64,000 nucleotides of DNA, from contig ML978126.1 in assembly GCA_010015805.1 (NCBI GenBank), forward strand, positions 1,054,001 through 1,118,000. The letters are read 5' to 3'. Below are positions 3,001-36,351 of this stretch, piece by piece. Made by a program: the position numbers and the translations under genes. Below the pieces are notes generated by a model. It was given only the letters and a program-made list of their open reading frames with translations. It was not told the origin of the DNA and ran no database searches. The DNA comes from Rhizodiscina lignyota. Taxonomy: Eukaryota. Within the stretch, counting starts at the first letter, position 1, and every line of letters starts with the position of its first letter.

Positions 3001-6000
3001 GAAGCCTGCCGAGATATCAGTATATGTATACGAATGGCAGTAGCTCCCAAGGCCCTTGAGCATGTGGATAGTCGCGCCGCCCGTTCCTGCGCCGATCTCG
3101 AGGACTTTCATGTGCGGATAGCGGTGAGCCAACTGTTCCGACACGGCGGCGAGATGACTGTACGTCTGTCGGAATGGAACGGCCTCGGCGTACAGCCTCG
3201 TAAGCATGTCGTTTTGCATCATGACCTGCAGCGCCGGGAGCTCGCCTCGGAGAATAGCAGGCTGGACTTGGCCAAGCGCCGTTATCATCTCCAGCTCCAC
3301 CATCCCTGGATACTTATCCTTCAATTGCGTCAACTCCTCACGCGTATCTGCGGCCCATTCTTTTTTGATGCGCGGGTGCCGTCCTGCTTCGACCTTGGGG
3401 AGGAGGTAGTTCAGGATCCAGTCAATCTGGATTTGGAAATGGCCTTCTAGTTCAGGAATCTCACTGGGCGAAATTTCGTCGCGTAGTCTTCGTAAATAAT
3501 AGTATGCGAGGCGTTCACAAGTATCGACGTACTCAACCTCCTCAGCGGTCAGATACTGGATTTGCTTGGGCTCAATGCCACTTGCCACATCTCTCTTCCA
3601 AACCGTCTTTGCGAAGAGTTTTCGGTCGTTTTGCGGCGTTGCTTTCGTGAAGGAGGAGCATGTCAAGGCGCGCAGCTGAATCTGTGGGTGACCGTTTGCG
3701 GACGAGGTGATGTTTACATCTCCGGACATCACTTTCGAGGTGGCTTTTGTAAGATAGCAGTCGGCAACAAGTTCACCGCTGTCGACAGGAGATGCCGAAA
3801 ACTCCAGCGCCACGGGATTGATGCGGATGTGCTGCACATTGGTGGGTAGATATGGAGTCCACAGTCGGCCGTCGCCAGGGAACGCCAAGGCGGTAAAGAG
3901 GCCATGAAAAGCAGAATCGAGCGTTGCTGGATGGAGTCGAAGTCGAGAGTTGTCCACGCGCTTAAGTGTGACCGTAGAAACATTAAGTCTCCTCTGCACC
4001 GAGTCAACGGTGAAGTCGCCTGTATACCGAAGGCCAACTTGCTCCATGTATGAATAAAGCCGGTCAACGCTGACTGGCTTCATTGGCAATCTTGGTGGAT
4101 TCCGGGCTGGCAAAACATCAATGGCAGGCGTTCCAAGACGGATAATCGCACGGCCTGTGAAATTCATGTTCTCCAGTTCCTGGGCCGCATCCCCATCCAC
4201 CTTGCAACTGTAGCACGAATACTCAGCCACAATCTGTCCTGGAGAGCGACCTGTAACTCGTATTGTGAAGGTGACTTCTGTACCGGCTGAGTCCTCCTCG
4301 AGTGTGATGGCGCGATGTATGGCGAGGTCCTCCAGCTCGACAAGTCTGACTTCCTCTGATGTCGTGAGGCGCATTGCCGCTTCGTAAGCCATGGACACAT
4401 AACCAGCAGCAGGAAAGAGAATTTGGCCCTGAAACATGTGACCTCGCAGCCACTCCATCTCCTGTACTCTCATGACGTTGCGCCAGATCACCTCGCGTCC
4501 CCCGCCGTGTGATGTCGCCGATCCAAGAAGCTCATGGATCGGGCTTTCGCGGCTGCGGTACTGTCGCGATTTGCGCGACTCCCTCCACATATGCTTACTG
4601 TGGTCCCAGGCATAAGGCGGAAGACCCTTAAGAACCGTCCCTTGGCCGATACTATCTCCAAGACAGGCCTTCCGGAATCCGCTAAAGTCGACAACAGGCG
4701 AGAGGGAGAGGAAATTGGACCAGATAAATCCTAGAGCATCCGCGAAGGAGTCCATATCGTCCTTTCCTCTGCTGAGAACACCACAATATGGTATGTCCAA
4801 GCCTGTCAGCGTCTTGAGGCTCTCTGATGCAGGAGCCTTGAGCGCCGCGTGCGGTCCGACTTCGAGCGCAATGTCGTGGCAGTGCTCTTCAGTCACCGCT
4901 CTTTCGAGTGCCTGAGAGAATAGCACTGGCTTAGTCATGTTGTCAACCCAGTAGGTGTCGTTGAGAAGGGCCTTCTCGTCTATGCTCCTTCCGTTCGAGC
5001 CATACACACTTGAGTACCATTTACACCGCAGCTGGCCTTTTCGGACTCGAATATCACAATTTCTGAGCGATTCAAGGTATGGCCCCGCACATGGATTCAT
5101 ATGATGCGAGTGGTATGCTTTGTCGACTTTGAGCACCCTTGCAAATGTCTGTTCTTCGTTCAAGAGCTCCTTGGCCTCGTCGATGGCATCCGCGTCGCCG
5201 GACAAGGTAACACTGGACCTCGAATTGCTTGCAGCTACCTGGATTCTACCAGCAAACTGTTCTCTGGTGCAGAAAGCACGCGCCTGATCAAGGCTCATGC
5301 CAACCGCCATCATCTTGCCGCTGTTCAGTCCAGCTAGATGAGCATACACACCGCGGTAATATGCGATACGGATCGCGTCAGACGCTTCCAAGTAGCCAGC
5401 GGCGTAAGCTGCTGCAATTTCTCCCGATGAGTGGCCAATAACGGCACTAAAGGTAATGCCGGAGGCATGGAGCAAGTTAATAAGAGCAACCTGGAGGGCG
5501 GTGCACAAGGGCTGCGAAATTTCCGCCTCGTGTATCCTGGATCTCTCGACCGGAGCAGTGAGCTCCACTGCTAGCGACCATGACGGAGAATCAGGCAACC
5601 TCTGTAGTGATTCTTCGAGAGCATCGATCGACTGTTTAAAGACTGATGACTGCGCGTAAAGACTAGCGCCCATCGAAGGCCACTGCGCTCCTTGGCCTGT
5701 GAATATGCCCAGGATCCGCGGCGGTAAGTCCTCCGTGACGTGGATCGCTTTTGTTGCTATCGAGTTGTGCGGATGTTGCGCTGCTTTGGCCGCCAGATCA
5801 TCCAGCTTCTTCGCCAGCTCCTCAGCAGTCGATGAAGAGACGTACGTCTTGTAGGGAAGCTCTGTACGACGAGTTTGCAGGGTCCAAGCCAAGTTCGAGA
5901 GGTCCGTCGTCTGTCCAGTCTTCAAAGCGCCAGATAGGGACCGAGCTCCGGCCAGCAGCGCCGATTCTGAATTGGCCGACAGAACGAGCGGACCACATGG

Positions 6001-7629
6001 GAGCTTTGGAGAATAAGGGCTAGGCGTAGAGGTGCTCATTGTAGTTGCTTCCGGAGTCCAGCTCTCGAGTATTGCGTGCGCGTTGGTCCCCCCAAAACCA
6101 AAGCTGTTCACGCTTGCACGCCGTGGGACGCCCGGGGGCATGACTGGCCATGGCTTGATTTCTGTCGGTATGCAGAGATTGGTATAGAATGGAGCAACCC
6201 TGGGATTAAGTCTGTTGAAATGCATGTTCGGTGGGATCAGGCCGTGCTGAACCGCCAAAGAGGCTTTCAGTAGCCCTGCTAACCCAGCGGTGCCCTCCAA
6301 GTGGCCGATGACTGTCTTTACTGATCCAATGTAAAGGCGTTCCTCTGCGTCGACGCTAGTTCGTATGTCGTCTTCGTTATCGTCTTCTGGATCTTCAGTT
6401 GCAAAGAATGCACCTTGCACAGCCTCTGCCTCGATTGCTAAAAGAACGTAAGAATTGTGAAGCAATGGATCTTGTGGTGAGGTCAAGCATACGGTCTCCA
6501 GCCATGGTCCCCGTTCCATGAGCTTCAAAATACTGGCAGCGGTCTTCCTTCCTCCGACAATCCAGTCCAGCCCTAGCATAAGTAGAGCGAATCAGCGCCG
6601 TCTGCGACATGGCACTGGGCACAGTGATTCCAGACGTGCGCCCGTCCTGGTTGACACCAGTTTCCCTGACGATGCATTCGATATGATCACCGTCTGCGAT
6701 AGCCTGAGTAAGGGTTTTAAGGAAAACCGCAGCGAAGCCCTCGCCTCGCGCATAGCCGTCTGCGTCGGCATCCCACATGCGCGATCTACCCGTCGGAGAA
6801 AGCATGTGGAGCTGGAGTATGGTCAGAGATTAGCGATTCTTTCCCTTCTTCCTCACCCAAGCTTGTCTGGGGAAGGCTGAGCTAACGCACCTTAGATTCA
6901 AGGATATATGGGTCCGGTCCAAGAATCAGATTCACGCCAGCTGCCACAGCTAGATTCGACTCGCCGCTCCTGAGCGTTTGCACGGCATGATGTAAGGCCA
7001 CCAAACTCGATGAGCACGCCGTGTCAATGGTGGTCGAAGGGCCTTTCCAGTCGAAAAAGTACGATACTCGATTAGAGAGAATGGCCCTAGACAAGCCAGT
7101 GGCGGCATATTGAGGCACACTATCCACATCTCGTAACAGCAGGTCCGAGTAGTCCTGAGTCATTTGACCGACGAACACGGCTGTCTGTGTGCCCTGGAGC
7201 TCCTGAATCGAATATCCCGCAGCATCCATGCCTTCATAAACTGTCTCCAAAAGCATACGTTGCTGAGGATCCATTGATTCTGCCTCTTTGGGGTGGATTT
7301 TGAAAAAGTTGTTGTCGAACACGCGGTGATCCTCCGTAAGAAGGTAGGAATGAAGCACGTTGGTACTCTAGAGTTTCGGAGAGTCTGTCAGTGCTATGTG
7401 CTCACGAGAACTGCCAATATGCTCATACCCCATGATATTCACCGTTCTCGTGGTAGAATCCCTTGGCATTGAATCGACTGGGAGGAATTTCCACCAAGAC
7501 ATCCCTCGGGTTTTTCAACAACTCCCACAGCTTTGACGGAGAACTCGCACCTCCTGGAAACCTACAACTACTTCCAACGATAGCGATAGGTTCCGGTGTA
7601 GATCGAGATTCGGCCATGGTGATTGCCAT
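1..7629 (-). CDS. Highly reducing iterative type I PKS of LovB/PKS-NRPS-hybrid type (KS-AT-DH-cMT-ER0-KR-ACP...), 3' end outside the window
   Basis: Manual translation gives KS ([36 protein letters not shown]), AT ([11 protein letters not shown]), DH ([18 protein letters not shown]), cMT ([12 protein letters not shown]), a degenerate ER-like spacer at ~1200-1950, KR ([23 protein letters not shown]) and ACP ([15 protein letters not shown] near 100). ATG is at 7629 or 7617. Introns are 7368-7428, 6812-6890 and 6438-6492. The last exon (from 6437) is in frame with the ACP and runs off base 1, which explains its absence from the ORF track. Confidence 0.96.
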
Positions 7630-8218
7630 ATAGCGCAATTGTATACTTGGTCGGAGGTGAAAGGGGAATTTAGTAAAAGAGATGTCTAAAGAGGGTAATA
7701 GAGCACATCCAGGTGGTCCGTATATCGATAATGCCAAGCGTCTGAATATTGAAAAAGAAAGGCGATGCACGTAGTTTTGTTTCCCTTCTTCCCCTTTTTT
7801 GGTCGTAGGTCACTACCAGTGCATGGAATATCCGGTGGTCACGTGATTCCGCTCTCAACGGCACATTATTGACAAGTGGAGGGGCCGTGCTTTCGGATGT
7901 CGGTTCAATGCGCTTACTATGAATCCAGAATGGACTATCCCGGGGGAAATGTATTATGTTTATCTCATCCATAGCATAGCCCAGGGTACTCGGTGGAATA
8001 AGCTTACTATACTAAGGGGAATGGCTTGCTCTGTGGCTTGTCAGTCAAAACTGTCGATATGCTTAAATAAAGTATCAGGGTATGCTTAAAATAAAATATC
8101 AGGGGAGTCTATCAGGATAACACCGTGGAATGAACAATGGAATTGCACAAACTTCGGTCTGATTCTCCGAAACTGCGAATGACATACTAACAAAAACAAC
8201 ACCAACTACCAAAAAGAA
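7630..8218. promoter_or_regulatory. Divergent promoter shared by the PKS and the trans-ER
   Basis: About 590 bp lies between head-to-head ATGs. It contains an inverted TTCGG-N9-CCGAA (8153-8171) and a short tandem duplication. Confidence 0.6.
8058..8104. repeat. Imperfect 23/24-bp tandem duplication
   Basis: TATGCTTAAATAAAGTATCAGGG is followed directly by TATGCTTAAAATAAAATATCAGGG. Confidence 0.8.
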
Positions 8219-9402
8219 ATGAGAACTCGAAGCACGTTAGTAGGAAAGGACGTTGGTCAGTACGAGCTGGTCCACGATGTTCCAATTCCTCGCGCGCAAC
8301 CTGAGCAGGTCATCTGCAGGGTTGCAGCCATCGCGCTCAATCCTACGGATTGGAAGATGGTAGACTTCTCTGTGGTTCCTGGCGCAGTCGGTGGGCACGA
8401 CTTTGCCGGCGAGGTAATTGAGGTCGGAGAGCAGGTAACACGGCTTAAAAAGGGCGATCGCGTGTTCGCGCTAGCAATTGGGTTCAACTCGGACGACAAG
8501 GCCACTGGCGCATTCGCCGACTACGCCATCACTTTCGCCGACGGCGCCTGGAGGATTCCGGACTGGATGTCGTATGAAGAGGCATCCACATTTGGCGTTG
8601 GTATTGGTACGGCGATCCTGGCGCTCTATCAGACGTTGGGGTTGCCACCACCAGATATCGACGGTACCACAGCATGCAAAAGGAAGCAAAAGAAGCCGGG
8701 GTACGTGTTAGTCTCTGGCGGGTCCACAGCGACAGGCACTATTGCAATCCAGCTCTTGAAAGCGTAAGAAAATTCCTCTACCGTTATACCCCCATCCGTT
8801 GGATTCTTCGGAATGAGAGTTTTGGGAGGAGTAAAGTTTCATGAGGGAATAGGGCTGACAAAAGTCTCCGTAGCTCTGGCTTCGTCCCAATCGTCACTTG
8901 CTCCCGCCAGCACATGGATATGGTCAAGTCTCTCGGCGCTGCAGCAGCGTTCGACTACAGCTCACCGCAATGCGGAAGCGAGATCCGCAGGTATACGAGT
9001 GGCACGCTCGAGTATGCCCTGGACTGCATCACCGAGGCGGGCACAATGAAGATGTGCTATGAGGCCATCAGCTCCGCAGGCGGGCGCTATGTAGGACTCG
9101 AGCCTCTGCCCACACACGTCCAGTACACGCGGCGACAGGTGCGCGCGGACTGGGTCATCGGCCGCACGCTCGCTGGGCTGCCCGTACGATTGGACGGCGC
9201 CTACGGCCGGCCAGCAAGACCAGAGGATCGCGAATTTGCCAAGCGATATTTTCCCATGGCCGAGAAACTCATTGCAAAGGGTCTGTTGAAGCCGCACCCC
9301 CTTGAGGTACGCGACGGCGGTTTAGGGGCTCTGATGGACGGCATCGACGACCTCCGGAAGGGCAAAGTCCGGGGGAAGAAACTCGTATATCCGCTTGCAT
9401 AG
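8219..9402 (+). CDS. Trans-acting enoyl reductase (LovC-like, MDR/GroES fold)
   Basis: Motifs ALNPTDWKM, GHDFAGEV, GGSTATGTIAIQLLK, VKSLGAAAAFDYSSP and GKVRGKKLVY. One intron, 8764-8873. Sits head-to-head with an ER0 PKS. Confidence 0.93.
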
Positions 9403-10572: not shown

Positions 10573-11865
10573 ATGCAGAAGATAATCTCGTCAGAATTCG
10601 TCAATTTCGAATATCTCCGCGTCCTCGGGACAGCCCCTTTACAAGGCGCCGAGGTCGGAGAGTGCCTCGAGGCCGCGAAAAGAATCAAGAGCAATGATCC
10701 CGAGAGCTGGTACAGTGCTTGGTCCGACGCGGCCGCAAAGAGCGAGTGGATTGCGGGAACGGCGGTGCGGTCGGGGGATCGGGAGGCAGCTCGGTGGGCG
10801 TTCCTCCGCTCGTCAAACTATCGCCGCGCCAGCGAGTTCCTTCTACACCACAATCCAAACGACCCAAGACTTCTAGAGTCTACCACAAAGTCCGTCAGCA
10901 ACTTCAAGAAGGCGTGCAGACTTTTCGACAGCCCAGTCCACTTTCTCGAGATACCCTACGAGAAGAATGCTACGCTACCGGCTTACCTTTTCATGCCGAC
11001 GGCATCGTCGCTCCGTCCAGGTAAGGTGCCCGTCGTCATTAGCACGGGAGGCTTCGACTCGATCCAAGAGGAACTCTACTACTTTACCGCTTCGGGAGCA
11101 AGGACTAGAGGATATGCAACGCTCTCCTTCGAGGGGCCAGGCCAGGGAATCGTGGCCCGCCGGGATAAGCTCCGCCTGAGACCCGACTGGGAAGTGGTCG
11201 TCGGCAGAGTACTTGACTGGCTTCACACCGCCCCCAACGAACATCCAGAATGGAACCTGGACATGTCGCGCGTGGCGCTAGCCGGAGCATCCATGGGAGG
11301 CTATTTTGCGCTGAGGGGTGCAATGGACCCACGAATCGCCGCCTGCGTTTCCATCGACGGCTTTTACGATCTGGGGGCAGTGACGCGAGCGCGCGTCTCG
11401 GGACCCTTGATGAATGCTATAGAGAAACATTACCTGCCAGACGGCGTATTTAACGCGCTTCTGGGAATAGCCGCCGCACTCAGCTTCCAGAATGGTTGGG
11501 AGTTGGGACACGCTATTCTGGCAACAGGTATCATGTCACCGGTAGAGGTGATGCGCACCTGGGCTGGCTATACTATGGCGCTACCGGACGGCAAGTCTCG
11601 CCTGAGCCAGATCAAATGCCCAGTGCTGGTAGCGGGTGCGCGAGATAGTATTTATGTTCCGTTGGAAGAAGACGAGCGAATCTACAATGAGCTGGTGCGA
11701 TTTGAGGGATCTGATAAGAAACACGAGCTGTGGATTCCAACTGGTCCGGGCCAGGGATCGTTGCAGGCAAAGGTGGCGGCGTTGGCAAGTCTCCATACCA
11801 AGACGTTTGGTTGGCTTGATGATGTTTTTGGGATCAAAAGAGAGTCTCTCGTCGTGGATCAATGA
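10573..11865 (+). CDS. Alpha/beta hydrolase, FUS2/PsoB-like (2,6-dihydropseudooxynicotine hydrolase-related)
   Basis: Intronless 430 aa. Motifs RSSNYRRASEF, GGFDSIQEELY, FEGPGQG, LRPDWEVVV, nucleophile elbow GASMGGY, and C-terminal GPGQGSLQAK as recalled for hybrid-cluster hydrolases. Confidence 0.88.
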   Translation: MQKIISSEFVNFEYLRVLGTAPLQGAEVGECLEAAKRIKSNDPESWYSAWSDAAAKSEWIAGTAVRSGDREAARWAFLRSSNYRRASEFLLHHNPNDPRLLESTTKSVSNFKKACRLFDSPVHFLEIPYEKNATLPAYLFMPTASSLRPGKVPVVISTGGFDSIQEELYYFTASGARTRGYATLSFEGPGQGIVARRDKLRLRPDWEVVVGRVLDWLHTAPNEHPEWNLDMSRVALAGASMGGYFALRGAMDPRIAACVSIDGFYDLGAVTRARVSGPLMNAIEKHYLPDGVFNALLGIAAALSFQNGWELGHAILATGIMSPVEVMRTWAGYTMALPDGKSRLSQIKCPVLVAGARDSIYVPLEEDERIYNELVRFEGSDKKHELWIPTGPGQGSLQAKVAALASLHTKTFGWLDDVFGIKRESLVVDQ

Positions 11866-12375
11866 GCTTCATCTTCGTTTCAACGTACGACCGTCGGGTG
11901 GCACTCTTTACACGATATTTGCTTTTGGGATGGAATGTGAAAATTGAGGCACGGATACGCTTAGGCTATGAATTGGCTGGTTCTTTTGTAAAGTCTTGGG
12001 GACACAGAACCTAAATCACTCTTGTTTGTAAAGACGCTGGATGTGATCCACATGTGCATGACAGGTAGTGGGCTTGAATTTCTCAATTTGTGAGTTTTAT
12101 TTCCTCTCCATGGGGGATGGTCATCGCTTTGTCTCACCCTCGCTCGTTGGAGTAAGTATCGGTGGGTTTATCGGTGCGCCTCACGACACAGTCGCTGCAT
12201 TGTATGTAAAAGCGTGAGACAACCTCCTTAGCATTTCCATCGGTGAATATTTGCATGTTAACGGACATGGGCACTGTACGTGCATTCAAGAAAGCCCAAA
12301 TCAGACCTGCGTCTAGAACGGAGAAACCCAAAAGGAGCTCCACTGAAAAAGTAGAGGACACAATTTCGAATCAAC

Positions 12376-12876
12376 ATGTCCTCAATTTTTCATGCAACTA
12401 TGCTCCTCCGCATCGCACCTCTGGTCACCTCATCCTTTTGTATCTGGTTCGCCTGGGATCAGTACTTCTTTCTTCACCTGTTCACGACTCCTGAGATAAG
12501 GCCAAAAGCGGTTCCAGTCGTTGCACCGTATCTTCGGCGGTTCTATCCTGGCGCATCTGCGCGAGTCTTTGTCACCTGGATAGCCACCTTGTCAACGTCC
12601 ATCGCAAATATCACCGCAGACCGGCAGGCCCTAGACGCTAATCAGTCTCTGCGGTGGTACACGGCAGGTCTATGCCTAGCAGCGGGTCACGCCGTATTTG
12701 CGCCCATTATACTGCCTACAATTTGGAAGATCGTTAAGTTGGAGGATGGGCCAACAGGAGAAAGGGACATCATGAAGCTCCTAGCGACATGGCTAAGAAT
12801 TCACGCTGTTCGGTCTCTGACTGTTGATCTGGCAGCGTGGATTTGCTTCGTTGTGGCTGTCACGCGCCAAACTTGA
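12376..12876 (+). CDS. Small integral membrane protein, PydX/XenD-like putative oxidative tailoring protein
   Basis: 166 aa with about 4 hydrophobic segments. The LLRIAPL...FAWDQ and WLRIHAVRSLTVDLAAWICF pattern matches, from memory, the small membrane proteins of pyrrocidine/xenoacremone-type clusters. Confidence 0.65.
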   Translation: MSSIFHATMLLRIAPLVTSSFCIWFAWDQYFFLHLFTTPEIRPKAVPVVAPYLRRFYPGASARVFVTWIATLSTSIANITADRQALDANQSLRWYTAGLCLAAGHAVFAPIILPTIWKIVKLEDGPTGERDIMKLLATWLRIHAVRSLTVDLAAWICFVVAVTRQT

Positions 12877-13109: not shown

Positions 13110-14353
13110 TTACTTTTGGGCGAAATGACCTCCTGGGCCAAGTTTAGCTCTCAGATATGTTGTGAGCAGGTTTTGTGCCACAATCTCTTCCTTTCTTGCC
13201 TCGAGATCCCCGACTGTCCAGTTTGCCGAGATGAATCGCCCTCGAAGGAAGTCAGCCCGGGGAGTGCAGAGATATAAGGAAACACCGGCGGATAGTGCAG
13301 CTAACGAGGACGTATCTGTCAGCATGATACCAAGCCTCTGGATATTTACAAAATGCATACCGGTATCTATGTTCGCCCCAGCAAGCATACCGAACTGAAC
13401 TCCGTTAGGGACGATGCCTGGATGGAGGTTGAACGCCCGAATATTTGGGTGTTCTGCCAGGAGTTAGCTTGTTATTAATACTACAGCACGGCAATGGTAA
13501 GGTGGCCTGGAGGAAAAGATTGGGTGTACTAACCTGCATGCACATATTCTATAAGCCGACAGCCTGCTGACTTTGTAATGGCGTAGTTCGATCTTGTCGG
13601 GACCGTTTCCACCGCCATTGAGCTGGTCATATTGATGAATGTGACCGGAGAGTCGGATTTCAAGTTTGCAGCATGCCGTGTCAGCAGATAGAGAGCCTTT
13701 ACGTTAGTTTCCTATCAGTATTGTGGCCCTGGGTCAGCACAGTTTCGAAAGCTTCGAGTAAAGCCGCCGCGGGAAATGAAACGTACGAAATCTCCCCACC
13801 ACCCACTGATATCTGTATCTCCAATCCTCTTCATCTGCGAGCGCGATGCGGCACAGCTAACAACAACGCTGACAGTACCAAATCGGCTCACCACATTGTT
13901 CCAAAGACGTTCGACGTCCGCCTCGGAAGTCAAGTCGCATTGAATACAGACAACTTCAGTATCCCGGTAGGTATCCTCAATCTCTTTTTTCAGTGCTTCT
14001 AGCACCTCAATTCTGCGGGCAGTGATGATGATAGCTCTTGCGCCGGCTTTGGCGAACGATCGTGCATGTTCCTACTTTGATATGAGTAATGACTTCTGTA
14101 GGCAACTCCTAGGCCGCTTTTTCGATAATACCTGCCTGCACTTGCAAGGCCAATATCACTGTATGCAGACAATGCTTACCGCTCCAATTGGTCCGCTAGC
14201 ACCTGTGATCAAGACTATGCGTCCGTCCTGCTTTAATTCGGAACTTCCAGGGTCGATTGAGGGATAAACATCGTGATGGAAGGTGGGCGTAAATAATTGA
14301 TGATACACAAATCTATCCTTCTCCGCCTCTGCTTGCATTTCGGCGGCCGTCAT
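13110..14353 (-). CDS. Short-chain dehydrogenase/reductase (multi-exon)
   Basis: HHDVYPSIDP leader, Rossmann motif VLITGASGPIG, QCDLTSEADV, catalytic YAITK, FNLHPGIV and DFLRGRFISANW. About 5 exons joined by GT-AG introns. Confidence 0.88.
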
Positions 14354-15008
14354 CTTTTACGCATGAACTTGAGTCTGTCTGCCGTGAACAGCAGTGTCCC
14401 ACGCGCGAATGGGTAAGATTTTGGACTTCTACCAGTGCATATTCTACGAATGGGAGTGGTGAAATTTAAAAAGAAGAAAAGAAGAAAAGAATCAAGACTG
14501 CCCTTTCTTCAGCTTACCTGCCAGTATGTTCCAGCTCGCTCGCTTACGTAATATGGCTCACAATTGAAAATATCCTCCGCAATGTCGGCGGATATCCCTT
14601 TTATCTACCGCCCCGATTCAATCGAACGCCAAATGTTCCTGAAAATCGTCAAAGCATCAGGCATCTCACGCCCCCATTGAAACCCATCAGCTAATCTCGA
14701 GTGAGGAAGGATTTATTCGTTTATCTAAATGATTGAACTGAGAGAGTCGTTAATCCACACGGCGTGTAGAGGCCGGTTCATGTCAGCTCGGCTGGTTTAT
14801 CGGCGTGTTAGTTTCTTTCCTCATATCGACTCAACCACTTATTTGCACAGCCACTTGGATTGAAAGACCGGTGCAAATCAGACATCGGGGTTGGAGGATG
14901 AAGGACAAAAGAGCTGCTGATGCACTTTGCAATGTCTGTGAAATCAATTGGAGGCCTATAGAGGCCTGGCGCGCACGTCACCTAGGGCCCATCAAGACCT
15001 GATCAAAT

Positions 15009-18000
15009 ATGCAGACCTCATCAACATCGGCACAATCGGAGATAATGGCGCCCGATAGGAGGATGCGCGCCACGATTCTCGTCAACGAGCACGAGATAGC
15101 AGACGGCGGACGGGAACCCAGCGCGGAAGAGGTTTCCTTGCTGCTGAAGTGGAATAGCGATCGCGGCGTGCCCTCAGAGGCTGTCAACAACTGTATCCAC
15201 GAGTTGGTTGACAAACAAGTCCTTCTTCGGCCGCATGCACTAGCTGTTCATGCCTGGGACGGCCAGCTTACTTACGAGCAGCTAGACGAGCTAGCAGAAC
15301 GGTTGACACATCACCTCATCAACGACGAATATGCGGTGGGGCCTGAATCGAAAGTCCTGCTATGCTTCGACAAGTCGATGTGGGCAATAGTGGCTATGCT
15401 CGCGATCCTCAAAGCCGGCGCAGTCGTCGTTCCTCTGGGGACGATAAACCCAGTTCCAAGGCTCGCACAAATTGCCAAAGACACGGAGGCGACTCTCATG
15501 CTCGTTGGACCGCAGTACGCTTCACGGGTGGCTGGACTGGTCCCTCACGTCCTAACCGTGGATGGGTCTTTGCTCGGGAGGCTGCCGGTGCCTACAGCCA
15601 AGGCCGCCGCCAAAGTGACCGCACGGAATGCAGCCTATATTATTTACACATCCGGTAGCACAGGGGTCCCAAAGGGGGTGGTGCTCGAACATTCAGCATT
15701 GTGTACAAGTTCGCAGGCTCATGGCCGGGCGTTTGGGCTTGGACCAGACACGCGAGCAGTCCAATTTGCAGATTACGCATATGACGTTAGTTTGGCGGAC
15801 ATCTGGTTCACTCTTCACCACGGCGGCTGCATCTGTGTCATGTCCGAGCAGGACCGGATGGACAATATTGTCGGGGCTATTGGAGTGCTGGATGGGAATA
15901 CCATCAACCTTACCCCGACTGTGGCAATGTTGCTTGATCCGGCCAAGGCTCCCAAATTAAGAACTCTCATCCTAGCCGGAGAAAATTGTCATGCCTCTAT
16001 CATCGAAGCGTGGAGTAACAGGGTGGCTCTCTATAACTCATACGGGCCGTCCGAAGCCTCATTCGGAGTAACCGTCAACGGACCGGTTGTCGACTCCAGA
16101 GCTGCCGGTAACATTGGGCGTCCAGTCGCGGGCTCTCTGTGGATCGTCGATGCCGCTGACTACAATCGGCTTTGTCCCATTGGTGTTCCAGGAGAGATTC
16201 TAATCGAAGGACCACTGCTGGCGCGTGGTTATCTCAACGACTCTGCGAAAACGGCATCGGCATTCATCATGGACCCAACGTGGGCAGCTCAATATGGCCT
16301 GGGACATGGCCGTCGGATGTACCGCACTGGAGATATGGCACGGCAAAACCATGACGGCTCATTAACCTACCTAGGCAGAATGGACAACCAAATCAAGGTG
16401 CACGGCGGACGGCGAGTTGAGTTGGGCGAGATCGAACACTGGATCCGAGTTTCCCATCCCGATGTGCGGGCTGTTGCTGTCGACGCCATCACTCCTCGCG
16501 AAGACGAGGCCACACCTGTGCTAACTGCTTTCGTTGAATTTGATAAAGACAGCGTGCATGTTCCTGGGACGAATGTTTCGACGCCCGGACCGTGCCCAAT
16601 GTCGGAAGGTATGCGAGATAAGTTTAGCAACTTACAGATGTCGCTACTCAACGCATTACCACCGTATATGGTTCCCGCACTGTATATTCCCATGGCACAG
16701 CTTCCCCAAACCGCCTCTGGCAAACTGGATCGAAAGTTGATCCGCCACCTTTTTGCAAATTTTACTCGCGAGGAATTATTGAAATTTACCCTAGCAAACT
16801 CTGCTAAGGCAGCACCCACCGACTTGGAGCGCCGACTTCAGGGTTTCTGGGCAGATGTGCTGGGGCTAGGAGCCGATTCGATAGGAACACAAGACAACTT
16901 TTTCCAGCTCGGTGGAGACTCGATAGCCGCCATGCGTCTGGTGTCAATGGCTAGAGCTAATGGCCTCGATCTTGAGGTAGCGGACGTGATACGCCGTCCG
17001 ACCCTGGCCGACTTGGCCGCTAAGATATCTTTGAAAACCTCGACAGACTCTCCGGCAACGACGTACCAGCCGTTCTCGCTTTTACAGCTTGAGGTGGATA
17101 AGGATACATTTCTTTCAGAAGCCGTGTACCCTTCAACAAAGCACCTGAATAGTCCCGTGGTCGACGTTCTGCCTGCAACCGATTTCCAAGCTCTTTGTGT
17201 GGCGGGTGCCTTGTCAAATTCGCGCTGGCAACTCACCCATCTCGCTTTTGACGGCGACGGTCTGTTCAATGTTGGTAGGTTGAGGAAGGCTTGTCATCAG
17301 CTCATCGCAGAGCACCAAGCTTTCCGTACCGGTTATGTTTTCCATGCGGGACGGCTATTGCAGGTCGTTCTGCAAGCTCACGAGCCACATATCAATGTGT
17401 ATGAGACAGAAGGATCTGTCGACGATGTCACCAAGACATTACTCGAGCATGATCTATACAGACCCCCTCGGTTCGGCCAACCATTTACGCAGTTTGCGAT
17501 AGTTATCAAAACTGGAACCTTACAGCACAGGATTATCATGCGTACGACACACGCCGAGGTAGATGGCCTCACAATCCCACTCCTCGGTCGCAGCTTTCAA
17601 GACCTCTACAACGGCACTCCATCAGGTTCATACGCAAACCACGCCCATTATGTGTCTTGCTCGCTCAAGGACAGTGATAATGCGTACGGCTACTGGCGTA
17701 AGTTCCTCCAGGGCTCGTCAGTCACAGAGATTGGCCGCGCATACGCAGTCCATCCCCACCGTGCCACAGCACTGCAGGGCCACCCAGTGGAGGTGGTGCC
17801 TACCGAAGGTGCAGCGGCGCTGAAGAGCATAACGATTTCCTGCATTGTACGTGCGGCCTGGGCCTTCGTTCTCGCCCAAGTGACCGAGGCGTCCGACGTA
17901 CTGTTCTGCGACGTTGTTGCGGGCCGCGGTAACGGAGCAGATGAGAAGCTGGAGACCACAATGGGCTGCTGCGCGAACGCCGTGCCGCTGCGACTGGCGA

Positions 18001-18740
18001 TCCCGCCATCAGCCACTATCATGGACCTCCTTCTCGCCGTGCAGGACCAGGTGCTAGCACGCATGCCATACGAGACCGTCGGCTTCCGCAAGATGCTTGA
18101 GGACTGCCCCAACTGGCCCCTGTCGCGATGGACGATTGTCAATCACCTCAGCGCTATGCCGACTGCGAATATGGCCCTGAAGGAGGGTAGCCGAGGGAAA
18201 GGAGACCTCGGAGAAGAGGACACCACGACAGACTACAAGTTCTCTATCCTGCCGGCGGTAACCAACGTTGATCCGACCAATGCTCGTGTCACAACAATCC
18301 CAGGCCCCGGGTGCGTTTTTGTCCGCTTCAATTGGAACCGCGATACTGTCCCTGATGAGCTGGGCGAGGCGCTTCTCAAAGCACTATGTGCAGCGATTGC
18401 TTTGTTCGCTGCCTTCCCAGAAGATCCTCTCCCTTATTCTTTGCTCTCAACAGATGGCAATGATCATGGCAACGGAGGAAGCGATACAAAGCGGGATGAC
18501 CTGCTGGCTCGTCTGCGTGTAGCGGTTGATGACGGGCGCCGGTGGCAGCGCGAAGCATCACGGCATGTACCAGAGGAAGCCGTTCGGCAGTTCTTCCGGG
18601 GAGACAACGTCGAGGCGGCCCGGGTCGTGTTTGAATTACAGCGGGAGGGCCTCGCGGTCGGCTTGGATGATGTACTGGACTACCCTACAATAGACGCCCT
18701 AAGAAAAGCTGTCCAAACCGGGTCAGGATCTCCGGTGTAA
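15009..18740 (+). CDS. Monomodular NRPS, A-T-C(terminal type)-degenerate T
   Basis: Intronless 1243 aa. A domain: LTYEQL, LKAG, YTSGSTGVPKG, YGPSE, GEILIEGPLLARGY, YRTGD, SGKLDRK. T domain: FFQLGGDSIAAM. C domain: THAEVDG. C-terminal T-like remnant: FFRGDNVEAARVV...VLDYPTI. Confidence 0.94.
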   Translation: MQTSSTSAQSEIMAPDRRMRATILVNEHEIADGGREPSAEEVSLLLKWNSDRGVPSEAVNNCIHELVDKQVLLRPHALAVHAWDGQLTYEQLDELAERLTHHLINDEYAVGPESKVLLCFDKSMWAIVAMLAILKAGAVVVPLGTINPVPRLAQIAKDTEATLMLVGPQYASRVAGLVPHVLTVDGSLLGRLPVPTAKAAAKVTARNAAYIIYTSGSTGVPKGVVLEHSALCTSSQAHGRAFGLGPDTRAVQFADYAYDVSLADIWFTLHHGGCICVMSEQDRMDNIVGAIGVLDGNTINLTPTVAMLLDPAKAPKLRTLILAGENCHASIIEAWSNRVALYNSYGPSEASFGVTVNGPVVDSRAAGNIGRPVAGSLWIVDAADYNRLCPIGVPGEILIEGPLLARGYLNDSAKTASAFIMDPTWAAQYGLGHGRRMYRTGDMARQNHDGSLTYLGRMDNQIKVHGGRRVELGEIEHWIRVSHPDVRAVAVDAITPREDEATPVLTAFVEFDKDSVHVPGTNVSTPGPCPMSEGMRDKFSNLQMSLLNALPPYMVPALYIPMAQLPQTASGKLDRKLIRHLFANFTREELLKFTLANSAKAAPTDLERRLQGFWADVLGLGADSIGTQDNFFQLGGDSIAAMRLVSMARANGLDLEVADVIRRPTLADLAAKISLKTSTDSPATTYQPFSLLQLEVDKDTFLSEAVYPSTKHLNSPVVDVLPATDFQALCVAGALSNSRWQLTHLAFDGDGLFNVGRLRKACHQLIAEHQAFRTGYVFHAGRLLQVVLQAHEPHINVYETEGSVDDVTKTLLEHDLYRPPRFGQPFTQFAIVIKTGTLQHRIIMRTTHAEVDGLTIPLLGRSFQDLYNGTPSGSYANHAHYVSCSLKDSDNAYGYWRKFLQGSSVTEIGRAYAVHPHRATALQGHPVEVVPTEGAAALKSITISCIVRAAWAFVLAQVTEASDVLFCDVVAGRGNGADEKLETTMGCCANAVPLRLAIPPSATIMDLLLAVQDQVLARMPYETVGFRKMLEDCPNWPLSRWTIVNHLSAMPTANMALKEGSRGKGDLGEEDTTTDYKFSILPAVTNVDPTNARVTTIPGPGCVFVRFNWNRDTVPDELGEALLKALCAAIALFAAFPEDPLPYSLLSTDGNDHGNGGSDTKRDDLLARLRVAVDDGRRWQREASRHVPEEAVRQFFRGDNVEAARVVFELQREGLAVGLDDVLDYPTIDALRKAVQTGSGSPV

Positions 18741-19125: not shown

Positions 19126-21129
19126 TCACACCCGAAAAAACTTGATAGGTCTAGGATTGCTCTTAGGGATAGACTTCCTATGAGCAAGCAGTACCCTCTG
19201 ATCGGAAGGTGGTGTGATGTCCGTACTTGTACTCTGTCGACTGATCAAGGGTATCTCCATGCTAGCACCATCGCCAACATCTGCGTCGGCCCCCGTTCGG
19301 TTCGTCAGTCCATAGTTAGTCTCGAGCTTGTCACGTAGCTGCACCTGTTTAATCAGCACGGCCAATATGAAACCCACAAGGGCAAATGCGATGCCGACCT
19401 CCCAGACTAGCCTAAGGCTGTCGAGGTAGACGCTCAACACCTGTGACCTCAGCGTCGGGGTCGAGTCGAGAGAACGTAGAAACTGCGACGATGCCAGGGC
19501 ATACGCCCCGCCGTTGGCAAGGCGTCTGCGGATATCCTGATCGTCGACGCGCCTGCGTAGCCGGTCAACTTCCGAGTTGAAAATCGCGGTCGGGATTGCA
19601 GCCCCCCAGATACTGCCGAGGCTCGCAAGAAAGGCCCATGTTGCGGTTGCAACGGCCTGGTCTGATTCTGAAAGAGTAGCTTGGATGGCAGGTAGTATAG
19701 TACTGGCGAGCAAGCCGATGCCCGCGGCACTCAGCAGCTGTGTACCCACCCAGTATCCCGTCGATGAGGTTGCATCAAGCCGGGAAAATAGACCACAAGC
19801 GACGGGCAAGGCCGCCGTGCCTATGAGATGAAAAGGCCGGTACTTTCCGAATTTGGACAGAAGTACGCCCGCCAGCAGGGCAAAGGGCATGGCCCCGATT
19901 GCCGTCGGCAGGACGTCGACCCCCGATTTGCCCGGCGTAGCGCCCAAGACCGCCTGAAAGTAGAGAGGTAAGATGTAAGTGACCCAAGACGTGATCATGG
20001 CGTGGAAAAAGGCCAGGGCATAACCGGCTGAGGAGGTTCTGTTCGAGAAAAGCTGCCTTGGTACTGTCGGCTCAGCAATGAAACCAGAAAATTCCAAAGC
20101 GAAGAAGCCGATAAGCCCAAGCAGGCCCAGGACCAAAGGTAGTACAATCCTCCACGAATACCATGGGTACTGCGTTCCTCCGAAAGTTAGCGCCACCAGG
20201 ATCGAGACCACGGACGAGATCAGAACGAAGTTTCCGACAAAATCTATACGCGAGATGACGCTTTGGATACTTCTGTCACGCTCGTGCTTGAGATCCAAGA
20301 AGAGTACCAGCAGAATTAATCCCACGGCGGCCAGGGGCAAGTTGATGTAAAAGATCCATCTCCAAGACAAGTGCTGGGCAATGGCGCCGCCGACGGGCGG
20401 TCCAAAGGCGATGGCGACGGCGTAGAAGCTCTGAACTATAGCCATGTATTTGGGCCGGTCGCTCAGTGGCACAAGGTCGCCGACTATGGTATTTATCATG
20501 ACGCCAATTCCGCCGCCACCACTGCCTTGGACCGCACGGCCAGCGATAAGGGCGGCAATGTTAGGTGCAGAGCCAGAGATGGCGGAGCCCAAAGCGAACA
20601 AGAGGACCGCAGTGATGATCAAACTGCGCCGGCCGACGATATTGGCTAGCTGGCCGTACCTTTACTCAGATTGTGCAAATTAGCAGATATCCTGCGAATA
20701 TTCGAACACGCAAAGATCATTTCATGTCAAACATCCTCAAGGATGCATGCAACTGTCATCAGCTTATCTGTACAGGGGTTAAACGCCCGACTCCTAACTT
20801 CTCACACAATTTGCATAGACATATCATCATATTGCACAACAGAAGTACGTACAGGGGCTGAAAGGCCGTTTCCATGAGGATGTAAGCGTTGGCAACCCAG
20901 GCATAGGCGGAACTTGAGCCGAGATCGCGAATGATTGTCGGCAGTGCCGTAGAAATAATAGACACATCGAGTGCGGAGAGGAGCGAAACGATCGATAAAG
21001 CTGCGAAGATAGCCTAGAGAATGGCAGCGGAGGTCAGAGAAGGCAACACTGGAGTCGCTTGTTTTGTGCTCTTACCCAGAAACGCCAGCCACGATTTTTT
21101 GGAGAGCCTGGATTCTTGGGAGGATCCAT
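19126..21129 (-). CDS. MFS drug:H+ antiporter (DHA2/14-TMS type) efflux pump
   Basis: Spliced N-terminus RGWRFW/AIFAAL..LSALDVSIISTALPTI..FQPL/YGQLANIVGRR, then GRAVQGSGGGG and WRWIFYINLP, with many TM helices. ATG at 21129, two 5' introns. Confidence 0.92.
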
Positions 21130-21694: not shown

Positions 21695-23212
21695 CTATAC
21701 CGCCTCTAAGTTTCTGATTAGCTGCTTTGCTGTCTTTATCCCCGCATACACCTTGTCCTGGTCGCGGTTCATCATTACCATCGCCGCCTTGATGGCTCTG
21801 ATGCACCCGGTTGATGCATCCGTAGTGCTCCCATCTGACGTAAGCTCACTATTCTCATCACCGCGGCCGACCCGCAGCCGGCGATGTGATGAGTGTCCCC
21901 GCAAATCCGGGGACTCTGAAGAACCGGAGGACGACGATGAAAGGCGGCGTGGTAGAGCTGTCGGTATCGTGGCGCTGGCAACCGGCATCATGGCCCTGTA
22001 TTCAACAAGCTGGTCGAGCGCCCGATTTAGCCGTTGGAGCTGGTGAGCGACAAGCTTTACGACTACGAGAGCTTGCGTCGTCGGCATTTCCATAAAAGAA
22101 AACGGGTTGGTTTGAAAATCTTCGCTTCGTTGTCGCTCGGGCGGAGAAAAGGTTTGTCCGCCCCCAATAGACAGGTTGACCGAACGACGGACTTGCTGGT
22201 CAATTGGAGGAAATAGAGTCTGCTTGTGTTGGCCACAGCGTCTGAGTTGGTGAGCGATAGAGCAAAGGATGCTCCAGAATGCGGTAAGCAGGCGCTGGTG
22301 ACAAGCCACGATCATCAGCACGACGCCCAAGTCTGCGCTCTTGCCGGCAGACGAACACATCCCACCATGATGCCTCGAGCCGCTGAAACAGTCATCGTCC
22401 CAATCCGGCGGAGTAGGAAACATAGAAACATCATCGTTATGCAAGTGAGTAGCAGCATTAACGCCGGAGCAGCCGCTTATGCAACGGCTGACGATCCCGA
22501 TAAAGGTCTCGCTAGCGGCAAAAATGTCGTTAAGCGCCGGTGAGGAAGCGCTCAGCAATGTCTGACCAGGCCGGGAGACCGCTTTGACCGCACGATAGAT
22601 TCGGAGACTGAGATCCGCAATCTCCTCAGTGTCTCTTTCAATGGCGTCTGCAAATGACTGCTTCATAGATCCCTCTGGTTCTGATTGGACGGGCCTGCTT
22701 GCTGGGGAAACCTCATCTTCCGAAGGGCCAGCTTGCGAACGTGACTGAGACGATGAAGATTCGATTGGCGGCATGTTAGGAACAGCAGTCAAGAAGTCAA
22801 GGTCGTAGCCAGGCGCATTGCTCAACCACAGTTCTTCCCCGACCATGAAAGGCGAAAACTGAGCTGGGTCTACAGAGACTGAGCCGCGCTGGGTTGCTGA
22901 ATCACTTGGGCGACCCACGGAAGGCCGAAATGTCCGCGGGGGAGATTGTCGCAGTCTCTTCCGAGCGTAGGATGCTGATGTAGCCGTGTCTTGTGCATCA
23001 CTCCCGAGTGGTGGCCGACCGGGCTTTTGCTGAGGACTGTAGATGCATACTGAACCAGCTCTCCTGCACCGTGAACAGGACTCAGAAGGTAGTGTCTCGA
23101 GGCCGACTTCTGCATTTCTAATGCATCGAACCTTCAAGCCGTGGCAGCGGTCGCACGACTGGCGAAGAGGCAGTGGAGAACTTTCAGGAGGCGTCGAATA
23201 TGACATTATCAT
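21695..23212 (-). CDS. Zn(II)2Cys6 pathway-specific transcription factor
   Basis: RQSCDRCHGLKVRC...SCSRCRRAGSVCIYS binuclear cluster followed by KPGRPP. Likely ATG at 23212 or 23206. Intronless, about 505 aa. Confidence 0.93.
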   Translation of the reverse strand: MIMSYSTPPESSPLPLRQSCDRCHGLKVRCIRNAEVGLETLPSESCSRCRRAGSVCIYSPQQKPGRPPLGSDAQDTATSASYARKRLRQSPPRTFRPSVGRPSDSATQRGSVSVDPAQFSPFMVGEELWLSNAPGYDLDFLTAVPNMPPIESSSSQSRSQAGPSEDEVSPASRPVQSEPEGSMKQSFADAIERDTEEIADLSLRIYRAVKAVSRPGQTLLSASSPALNDIFAASETFIGIVSRCISGCSGVNAATHLHNDDVSMFPTPPDWDDDCFSGSRHHGGMCSSAGKSADLGVVLMIVACHQRLLTAFWSILCSIAHQLRRCGQHKQTLFPPIDQQVRRSVNLSIGGGQTFSPPERQRSEDFQTNPFSFMEMPTTQALVVVKLVAHQLQRLNRALDQLVEYRAMMPVASATIPTALPRRLSSSSSGSSESPDLRGHSSHRRLRVGRGDENSELTSDGSTTDASTGCIRAIKAAMVMMNRDQDKVYAGIKTAKQLIRNLEAV

Positions 23213-23652: not shown

Positions 23653-25356
23653 ATGTATGTCACAGCTGCTGTAATCAGCGCGATCGCAGCCATAGCGGCC
23701 TTTTTCGCACGAGGCTCTGATTCAAGCCCACGCGTCAGCATCTCCAATGGTACCGTTATCGGGACGAGCTCAGACGGTGTTGATACTTTCCTGGGGATTC
23801 CCTACGCGCAGCCTCCCACAGATTCCCTTCGCTTGAAACGACCTCAGGCACTGTCACACACATTTGGAACCATCCAAGCCACGTCCATTCCCAGAGCATG
23901 TCCGCCGCTGAAGGTTAGGGCCGACCCTCAGATGCTGTCGCAGATCCCGCCAGAGATCGCAGGTCATCTCGCCACCTACTTCCAGGAGCCCACGTTTATT
24001 GGCGAAGATTGCTTGACGCTTAACGTCCAGAGACCCGCCTCTGTTACGCCCAATTCCAAGTTGCCAGTGCTCGTTTGGATATACGGCGGTGGCTTTGAGC
24101 AAGGATCTACCCAGCAGTACGACTTTGCTCGTCTCGTCAATACGTCTATTGCGCTCGAGCACCCCATAATCGTCGTACAGATGAACTGGCGGGTATCCGC
24201 TTTCGGCTTCCTGGGAGGGAAAGAGCTCCAGCAGGACGGCAGTACAAATCTCGGCCTACGTGACCAGCGCTTCGCTCTGCAATGGATCGCCGAAAATATT
24301 GAGGCCTTTGGTGGGGATCCGTCCAGAGTCTCTATCTGGGGCGAATCTGGAGGCAGTATGTCCGTCTTCGACCATACTATGATCAACGGTGGCGATCACA
24401 CGTATAATGGGAAACCACTATTCCGCGGTGCCATCCTGAACTCAGGAGCTGTTGGGCCTGCGCTTCCCGTGGATGCTGCGGTGGCTCAAAAGACATACGA
24501 TACCATCGTCGATACAGCCGGCTGCTCCTCGTCGACAGATACGCTCGCTTGTCTCCGAGACCTGCCGTACGAGGCCTTCCTGAATGCGTCAAATGTGACC
24601 CCAAATATGTTCAACCAGGACGGCGTGGCCGTTGCCTTTACGCCGCGACCAGATCCATCCGACAATTTTTTCCCAGTCTCTCCGGATGAGGTCTTGGTAT
24701 CTAGCCCGCCGAAGGTGGCCCCCGTGCCCATACTTGCTGGCACGATGGAGGATGAAGGCACCTTATTTGCCCTGGCGCTATACAGGGCCCCCACAAAGGA
24801 TGCGTTGATCGACATCATCCACGGCATTGCTCCGACCTGCCCCCGATCCACGTTCGAGCGTCTCTTCTCCTTCTATCCTGACGAACCAAGTCATGGCTCG
24901 CCCTTTGGCACAGGCGAGGCCAACGAGCTCTACCCTGGCTACAAGCGCAATGCAGCCATCGCTGGGGACCTCTGCTTCGCGTTCCAGCACCGTTTGCTCC
25001 TCGAGGCGGTCTCGGACATTATCCCCACGTGGAGCTACCTCTCCACGTACGGGAGGCAGACCCCATTGATAGGCACGTTCCATGGCGCTGACGTTGCGCT
25101 GCTGGCCACCGGTTTCATAGACCCATTGTACCGGGCCATGGTACAATACATCGTCAGCTTCGTGCACCATCTCGATCCCAACGTCATCAGCAAGATGGAT
25201 GGCGGCGCAAGAGGCCTCCCCGAATGGCCAAGGTACGGAAAGAAGAATAAAGATATGATGCAGTTCACGGACCAGGGGCTGCAAATTGGGAAGGATGATT
25301 TCCGGCAGGAGGCCTTCAACTATTTTTCTTCCCAAATTTCTCAAATGAGATGGTGA
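23653..25356 (+). CDS. Secreted type-B carboxylesterase/fungal lipase
   Basis: Hydrophobic N-terminus, FLGIPYAQPP, EDCLTLNV, WIYGGGF and NLGLRDQ. Nucleophile WGESGG, acid residue in EDEGTLF, His in GTFHGAD. Confidence 0.93.
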   Translation: MYVTAAVISAIAAIAAFFARGSDSSPRVSISNGTVIGTSSDGVDTFLGIPYAQPPTDSLRLKRPQALSHTFGTIQATSIPRACPPLKVRADPQMLSQIPPEIAGHLATYFQEPTFIGEDCLTLNVQRPASVTPNSKLPVLVWIYGGGFEQGSTQQYDFARLVNTSIALEHPIIVVQMNWRVSAFGFLGGKELQQDGSTNLGLRDQRFALQWIAENIEAFGGDPSRVSIWGESGGSMSVFDHTMINGGDHTYNGKPLFRGAILNSGAVGPALPVDAAVAQKTYDTIVDTAGCSSSTDTLACLRDLPYEAFLNASNVTPNMFNQDGVAVAFTPRPDPSDNFFPVSPDEVLVSSPPKVAPVPILAGTMEDEGTLFALALYRAPTKDALIDIIHGIAPTCPRSTFERLFSFYPDEPSHGSPFGTGEANELYPGYKRNAAIAGDLCFAFQHRLLLEAVSDIIPTWSYLSTYGRQTPLIGTFHGADVALLATGFIDPLYRAMVQYIVSFVHHLDPNVISKMDGGARGLPEWPRYGKKNKDMMQFTDQGLQIGKDDFRQEAFNYFSSQISQMRW

Positions 25357-35455: not shown

Positions 35456-36351
35456 TTTTTCAACCCATCCAGGCGTGATCCGAGGGATGAGCGAGAGTGA
35501 GCGTGAGTGATGGAGTATGCTTTGACTGGGCTCGAAAATATCGTAATGCGTTCGCGTAATTTGTAGGAGACAACCTGAATTACCAATGCCTTTATCAGAA
35601 TCTCATTCACGAAACTCTACAACTCACGAAATTGCTCGAACGTTTCCCAAAAGCACTGGCAACTGGTTCCGATCCAAGACGCGACGTTCTCGTACGATAC
35701 ACGCATCCGGCAATACGTTCTTCCGTGCTTCCAAGTGGACCTCGGCTCGGAAGCCGTGTCACGTGAGCACGAGTTCCATGTCGAAACGTTCTGTTGAAAT
35801 CGAGGAGCAACAAATTTTGCTTCCTAATGACTGCACTTCTTTCAGCTAGTGACACTGCACAAATGGAGCATGGTTGGGAGCTGTTTAGCATGGGTTGGTT
35901 TCTGCGTTAGAGGAAGTACTTCACTGAACGGCTCAGTCTCCAACCTCCGCGAAGTCATATTAGCCGTGGTGTCAATATGAACCTAGCCCACGTTTCACCC
36001 ACACTCCTTATCGAACCTGAGTCTGTTCAAAACAGAAACTGATGTTGTCGTGTTCTCCTCCTCATCCGTTCTGGAATAGGTTTAGCGGTGTCCACATAGG
36101 GATGCGATATCAGGGGGTAAAGGGAGGGGCCGTGGTGGCGTGGGGGAAGCGAGCTGCAAGCACGCGAGTCTCCGCATGAGGCTCTTCTCGAGTTATTCAG
36201 CTATAAGCGGAGCTCGGACAGCCGGCGAGAGGCCTTTTTGAATACCCTTCCTGCTTTACTCCGCGTTTCAAGCTGCTCCCGCTCAATATCAACCCCATTG
36301 CCAGCAGGCTATTAGGCCCAATTGCGACAGACTTGCGCTAATGATTAATCC

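Follow-up and report, generated by a model that had tools for sequence, protein, structure and literature searches.

A lone terminal module of a nonribosomal peptide synthetase beside a complete PKS-NRPS hybrid in Rhizodiscina lignyota: a candidate tailoring aminoacyl-transferase

A stretch of 64,000 nucleotides of Rhizodiscina lignyota DNA (GenBank assembly GCA_010015805.1, contig ML978126.1, positions 1,054,001 to 1,118,000; G000:C6:1054001-1118000 in our numbering), hereafter called the window, carries a monomodular nonribosomal peptide synthetase (NRPS) gene near a polyketide synthase (PKS)-NRPS hybrid gene. The NRPS gene is a single open reading frame (ORF; 15009-18740, forward strand) that encodes 1243 amino acids (aa) and contains no internal stop. 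Judged from its sequence, the NRPS is a lone terminal module, with the architecture that ends fungal cyclic-peptide synthetases: an adenylation (A) domain, a thiolation (T) domain, a terminal-type condensation (CT) domain and a degenerate carrier domain without serine (T°). This identification follows from the placement of the C domain in the CT clade, the T-like tail, an A domain of the peptide-synthetase type and an ordinary leader. The neighbouring hybrid is complete, and we see about an even chance that the NRPS is a tailoring aminoacyl-transferase, which would add an amino acid to the product of this hybrid.

The completeness of the hybrid became apparent from the 40 kb read upstream of the window. 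Past base 1 its frame continues as ACP-C(HHIALDG)-A-T-R and reaches its stop 4.6 kb beyond; the whole is one open frame of 3719 codons, in the same length class as the 3961-aa orthologues. A P450 gene, whose haem-cysteine motif is kept, comes next after the stop of the hybrid. The original prediction had cast the NRPS as the detached half of a split PKS-NRPS line, and in its first model the PKS ended in ACP-C and passed its chain in trans to the A and T domains of the NRPS. The headline does not hold, since the domains beyond base 1 complete the hybrid, and the first model fails because the neighbour ends in ACP-C-A-T-R; a clustered PKS that ends at ACP or ACP-C, by which a split system would be recognized, was not found. 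The one observation in favour of this model is the missing N-terminal C domain, which is common to any A-first NRPS, and we regard the model as practically excluded. Separate, adjacent PKS and NRPS genes are also described for GLPKS3-GLNRPS7 (PMC4471562) and for thermolide ThmA/ThmB and PfaA (PMC11731387), and PfaA is further similar in that release is by a CT domain. However, the PKSs of these systems, as described, are incomplete without the NRPS, whereas the present hybrid ends in R.

The C domain of the NRPS is classed as CT-type by its phylogenetic position. A FastTree analysis covered 113 domains of 29 chosen proteins. In it the terminal C domains, 25 of 25 and that of the NRPS among them, form one clade with a support of 99, separate from the internal C/E domains and from the hybrid C domains, which bears out the terminal-CT call of the original prediction. 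The best match in the Protein Data Bank (PDB) is the CT domain of TqaA (118 bits, E 6e-33; the next protein scores 45 bits). When 308 fetched proteins were compared, each of the 30 best matches to the C domain was situated no more than 275 aa from a C-terminus, with identities of 35% or less. The C motif at aa 847-853 is THAEVDG and not HHxxxDG, as had been read. With reference to HxxxDxxS, the His and Asp residues are present and the last Ser is replaced by Thr; position 5 of the motif is Val, where an aromatic residue occurs in 91 of 94. At a threshold of 0.8 the domain keeps 76% of the conserved columns, against a median of 91% (only 1 of 94 is lower). At 0.7 the domain keeps 76%, with a median of 84%, and at 0.9 domain and median both stand at 95%; at the strictest threshold 19 of 20 columns are retained, which equals the median.

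Downstream of the CT domain, the tail matches a T profile with an E value of 0.003 and a profile of homologous tails with one of 1e-7; its atlas match to PP-binding clusters at 0.82 is a lead only. The A-T-CT layout of the original prediction was therefore right as far as it went, and the serine-less tail had been overlooked. A T-like tail follows the CT domain in 19 of the 30 closest CT relatives, none of which has the canonical serine, and in a wider set 33 of 38 long tails are T-like, with the serine kept in two. A functional trailing T domain is present in GliP-type synthetases; because the present tail has no serine, the role of T° would be at most structural. The NRPS thus resembles the terminal modules of multimodular synthetases and the TqaA CT domain (PDB 5DIJ/5EJD) in its CT clade and serine-less tail, but it has THAEVDG in place of the usual SHAQYDG (49/84) and the upstream modules are missing. 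There would therefore be no peptide to cyclise. Elsewhere in the genome, an NRPS with the order A-T-C-A-T-C-T (L015:8439 to L016:5321, reverse strand; G000:C22), which we take to be the layout of GliP-type diketopiperazine synthetases, keeps the serine in its trailing T domain.

The A domain groups with those of multimodular peptide synthetases in a tree of 95 A domains, where it has no sister, and the A domains of PKS-NRPS hybrids occupy a separate branch (length 2.05, support 100). Its identity to the A-T part of the neighbouring hybrid is 28%, and neither this value nor the tree places it in a hybrid lineage. Its matches in the databases searched reach no more than 48% identity. Of the 55 near-invariant columns it retains 54, which is also the median for 973 A domains. 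A one-residue insertion in its A8 motif, near 16395, is the only one among 826 scorable A domains (1186 examined). The pocket D-V-A-N-I-A-S-F-G-K, originally read by eye, was obtained again from motif offsets. A substrate call from this pocket was rejected, as had been advised, since the nearest codes share only 6 of 10 residues and none of them has a known substrate.

The order of the Pfam matches (AMP-binding at aa 69-409, PP-binding at 609-671 and Condensation at 722-1044) agrees with the earlier claim that the NRPS has no N-terminal C domain. A hidden upstream exon coding for such a domain was considered and rejected, because the short-chain dehydrogenase/reductase (SDR) gene starts about 655 bp upstream on the opposite strand and leaves no room for it. 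The leader of the protein, which ends SAEEVSLLLKWN (W48), had been interpreted as a remnant of a C-A linker. The WN element is found, however, in 31 of 50 N-terminal A modules, some of whose N-termini are perhaps truncated gene calls, and in 439 of 606 internal A modules; it is thus not diagnostic and gives no sign of truncation.

Recent truncation of a multimodular NRPS, an alternative raised earlier, finds no support in these comparisons, because no parent is present among the scored NRPS loci of the genome (best 42-43% for A and 29% for CT) and the A domain has no sister in its tree; an unsampled parent is conceivable. No close orthologue was found in the databases searched either, the best matches being 48% for A and 35% for CT. 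In these searches only limited sets of candidates are scored and multimodular proteins take the first ranks; a distant monomodular relative may therefore be hidden. The genome loci examined were scored candidates only: an A-T-C-dA-T-CT synthetase (C2), a ferrichrome-type NRPS (C8), the A-T-C-A-T-C-T synthetase (C22), an NRPS-PKS (C1) and an A-T-first NRPS-like gene (C1). At no locus does the gene look like a peptide synthetase without its last module, and the idea that the NRPS completes a split multimodular synthetase elsewhere in the genome was rejected. A frame of 2538 codons on C1 (L013:1106-8719, reverse strand) has the order A-T-KS-AT-KR-ACP-R, presumably the layout of swainsonine synthase SwnK.

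Two loci on other contigs carry C domains to which an A-T unit might belong. On C10, a highly reducing PKS (HR-PKS) with an enoylreductase (ER) in cis ends in ACP-C with the motif HHLVTDG (L025:7265 to L026:5927, forward strand). On C7, a stand-alone C domain (HHLVLDG, 38% to the hybrid C domain) is fused to a trans-ER-like domain (L023:3908-6535, forward strand; G000:C7:1565908-1568535), an unusual fusion situated roughly 5 kb downstream of an HR-PKS stopping at ACP. It is very improbable, in our judgement, that the NRPS completes one of these unlinked lines in trans to give a macrolactone like thermolide or PF1163. The C10 enzyme (KS...ER-KR-ACP-C, G000:C10 ~1251.3-1259.9 kb) and the C7 fusion (~1565.9-1568.5 kb) both have no A-T gene beside them in the 30 kb fetched, and PKS-C plus A-T-CT would sum to the layout described for PfaA. 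Against this, the two loci are on other contigs and lack the promoter motif considered below, and both were found with the hybrid C domain as query (38% and 25%), yet the A domain of the NRPS is derived from peptide synthetases. Moreover, PKS-C enzymes such as wortmanamide TwmB reportedly accept free amines and do not depend on an A domain for this.

The closest relatives of the hybrid are Trichoderma proteins of about 3960 aa, with identities of 65-68% in the PKS part and 61-64% in the C-terminal part. Two of these proteins, OPB36124 and PON22311, and a cluster member, PTB59921, are assigned to clade II-gamma, a predicted pyrrolinone clade without a known product (Minami 2020, PMC7421883). 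In the clade table of that paper we took 'x' as 'absent', because this agrees with its Table 1. The present cluster resembles clade II-gamma clusters in the sequence of its hybrid and in the presence of a trans-ER and a hydrolase. It differs from most members in EthD, which by the same table is missing from the Trichoderma clusters and is missing here too, and in its NRPS, which the table lists for no member of the clade (PMC7421883). As to the product of the Trichoderma orthologues, their accessions appear in no main text of the open-licence literature, and two reviews mention trihazones without linking them to these accessions. A hybrid ending in R, a PyiE/Fus2-type hydrolase and a trans-ER, the combination that marks pyrrolinone clade II, are all found in the cluster. 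The hydrolase matches 2jbw, 3fnb and 6hxa, the templates named for the PyiE/Fus2 family (PMC7898483), and carries the residues listed for this family. We infer that the hybrid, the trans-ER and the hydrolase make a pyrrolinone. The A pocket of the hybrid, read by eye (L002:5700-8000, reverse strand), is DLEEFGLLSK, identical to that of a Hypoxylon cercidicola hybrid and one residue off the DLEVFGLLSK of the Trichoderma orthologues; with two glutamates in the pocket, the substrate may be a basic amino acid.

The NRPS gene is situated between the hydrolase and DUF1772-like genes on one side and the genes for a major facilitator superfamily (MFS) transporter and a transcription factor (TF) on the other (Table 1). 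A metagenome scan with the hydrolase gave four near-identical loci from 70 candidate stretches. This related cluster (L008:9971-21305) contains a hydrolase, TF, MFS, DUF1772-like protein, EthD, trans-ER and the start of a PKS-NRPS; its AT-rich flanks vary among the four loci. Because homologues of the MFS and TF genes cluster there with a trans-ER and a PKS, the two genes are counted as members of the present cluster, which places the NRPS inside it. In addition, a 16-bp CGG-N9-CGG motif occurs at -217 of the DUF1772-like gene and at -221 of the NRPS gene, with no other copy in the genome, and CGG-anchored shuffles scored as high in only 7 of 1000 cases. The support that the shared motif lends to cluster membership is weak, because it was spotted post hoc and the PKS/ER promoter does not have it.

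Table 1. Features of the NRPS and its cluster (positions of the window)
Feature	Position	Strand	Remarks
PKS-NRPS hybrid, 5' part	1..7630	-	KS-AT-DH-MT-KR-ACP within the window; C-A-T-R beyond base 1, to L002:4932
trans-acting enoylreductase	8219..9402	+	two exons
PyiE/Fus2-type alpha/beta-hydrolase	10573..11865	+	GASMGG elbow; D-S-x-x-E and F-x-x-x-R motifs
CGG-N9-CGG motif, second copy	12159..12174	+	217 bp before the DUF1772-like gene
DUF1772/anthrone-oxygenase-like small protein	12376..12876	+	below the Pfam cut-off
Short-chain dehydrogenase/reductase (SDR)	13110..14353	-	introns; divergent from the NRPS
CGG-N9-CGG motif	14788..14803	+	221 bp before the NRPS ATG; promoter in common with the SDR
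Monomodular NRPS, A-T-CT-T°	15009..18740	+	one ORF, 1243 aa; alternative start possible at 15045
A domain, multimodular-NRPS type	15126..16778 (limits approximate)	+	core motifs present; catalytic Lys572; pocket DVANIASFGK
T domain	16818..17024	+	GGDS serine intact (Ser638)
CT-type condensation domain	17055..18404	+	THAEVDG at 17547-17567; His848, Asp852
Degenerate serine-less carrier domain T°	18588..18701 (aa 1194-1231)	+	resembles tails of multimodular NRPS terminal modules
MFS transporter	19126..21129	-	
Zn2Cys6 transcription factor	21695..23206	-	
Carboxylesterase, candidate cluster member	23653..25356	+	hydrophobic N-terminus; signal peptide judged by eye

Past the cluster, positions 28774-33425 of the window hold small genes, a fragment resembling an M35 metalloprotease and Cys-rich ORFs without a Pfam match. 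HET-domain genes are found around the cluster, three by Pfam (36349-38325 and 48166-49788 of the window, and L003:7906-9999) and one by eye (L005:2459-4774).

With the hybrid complete, the second model of the original prediction, the addition of a second amino or aryl acid to its product, stays the best reading, if only by inference. The hybrid, the trans-ER and the hydrolase would release a pyrrolinone, on which the P450 or the SDR would supply an acceptor group such as a hydroxyl. The A domain of the NRPS would activate one amino acid and load it onto its own T domain, and the altered CT domain would then attach it to the hybrid product, at a free hydroxyl or amine, as an ester or an amide. 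Several observations speak for an NRPS that is active and acts on the hybrid scaffold. The hybrid, ending in ACP-C-A-T-R, can work without a partner; the NRPS has kept its T serine and its CT His and Asp, the same residues that AneB requires; and the CT domain is more diverged than nearly all terminal CT domains, which is compatible with a change of acceptor. The place of the gene within the cluster, the shared CGG motif, the intact frame and the normal conservation of the A domain count in the same direction.

Precedents for such a role have been described. AneB esterifies free alcohols, accepts host alcohols as well, and needs the T serine, His and Asp (PMC10720950). AneB, ThmA and FlvI esterify terpenoids (PMC10720950, PMC8902786), and FlvI and LpsB serve as precedents (PMC8902786). 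By their descriptions, on which the comparison is based, AneB, ThmA and FlvI share with the present NRPS the A-T-C order, an xHxxxD motif without the first His and clustering with another scaffold-forming enzyme, but their scaffolds are terpenoids and the one here would be a hybrid product. Like AneB, the present NRPS is a monomodular A-T-C enzyme with the T serine and the C His/Asp, encoded beside a scaffold-making enzyme; its action on that scaffold is putative. Af12050 (FmqC) and TqaB condense with a free alkaloid (PMC11546977). They too are monomodular and extend, by one more amino acid, a product that another synthetase has released, although their acceptor is an NRPS-made fumiquinazoline, where here it would be a PKS-NRPS pyrrolinone. 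The CT domain of ftChyA uses free anthranilate (PMC9622831). A second NRPS, CtdD, is also contained in the citrinadin cluster (PMC8260726). Single-module tailoring NRPSs are known for terpenes and indole alkaloids; one that acts on a complete fungal PKS-NRPS product was not found in the open-licence literature, such chemistry being mostly in subscription journals.

Several observations weigh against the assignment of the NRPS as a tailoring enzyme of the hybrid. No orthologue of the NRPS was found in the databases searched, and the key-enzyme table for the Trichoderma orthologues, which was not designed to detect one, shows no NRPS. The PKS of the related cluster (P0373) is less closely related, at 46% to the present hybrid, and matches to the NRPS, SDR, esterase and P450 are absent from the approximately 12 kb of that cluster seen. 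Neither the PKS/ER promoter nor that of the hydrolase carries the promoter motif, and its NRPS copy is shared with the SDR promoter. When the CGG anchor was removed, 16/20 matches were reached in 30 of 30 shuffles, the level expected by chance, in a comparison where some 180 bp of the MFS 'promoter' were in fact coding and intron sequence. Among the known enzymes, AneB is an A-T-C protein of 1078 aa whose C domain is described as cd19545 FUM14-like (PMC10720950), whereas the present C domain is CT-type and is followed by T°, and the structure of the TqaA CT domain has its acceptor side blocked (PMC11546977).

The unique A8 insertion and the divergence of the CT domain also count here, as they are compatible with decay. 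A normal A domain combined with a shifted CT domain fits a change of acceptor, but fits early decay as well. The NRPS might then be a captured terminal module of a multimodular synthetase, inactive or decaying and outside the pathway, a reading that we consider unlikely, if worth keeping in mind. Its layout copies that of terminal modules down to the T° tail, the aromatic residue at position 5 of the CT motif is missing, and the conserved columns of the CT domain, the missing orthologue and the absence of the NRPS from the seen part of the related cluster all point the same way. On the other hand, the frame is unbroken across 3.7 kb, with no stop or frameshift, and no signature of repeat-induced point mutation (RIP) is present: the G+C content at third codon positions (GC3, 0.58) and the RIP indices resemble those of the hybrid and the neighbours. 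The region shows no difference from one public contig, which is possibly the source of this assembly. Conservation of the A domain is normal, the CT domain is at the median at the strictest threshold, and with neither a parent among the scored genome loci nor a sister in the A tree, a recent truncation has no support.

A different doubt is whether an active NRPS need act on the hybrid product at all. It could release the amino acid that it activates, dimerise it or conjugate it to another small molecule, or it could make a building block, being merely co-located or co-regulated with the hybrid; this, too, we think unlikely. CT domains are able to hydrolyse, as in IvoA (PMC11546977), or to use a free primary metabolite, as ftChyA does with anthranilate (PMC9622831). 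AneB takes host alcohols, and the relatives of the hybrid appear to manage without this NRPS. Yet the NRPS gene lies in the middle of the cluster, where no precursor or tailoring genes of its own accompany it, and it lacks an epimerisation domain such as that of IvoA.

The role of tailoring aminoacyl-transferase can be extended to an evolutionary proposal, which is speculative and fairly improbable. A pyrrolinone PKS-NRPS cluster would have captured the terminal module of a cyclic-peptide synthetase, and its macrocyclising CT domain would have been re-tuned to an intermolecular transferase. The divergently transcribed SDR and the secreted-type esterase would complete an add-on unit, by which the product is masked with an amino acid before export and unmasked once outside the cell.

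Each of the elements is already known, monomodular A-T-C tailoring NRPSs as well as CT domains and pyrrolinone hybrids, but their combination was not found in the open-licence literature; no new kind of split assembly line is shown by this cluster. At approximately 25-30 kb, it is suited to standard heterologous expression and makes a reasonable target for genome mining. If the tailoring role is correct, the cluster would yield a doubly aminoacylated polyketide, and this from a clade of hybrids that has no known product, and its NRPS would provide a compact example of a cyclising CT domain converted into a transferase.

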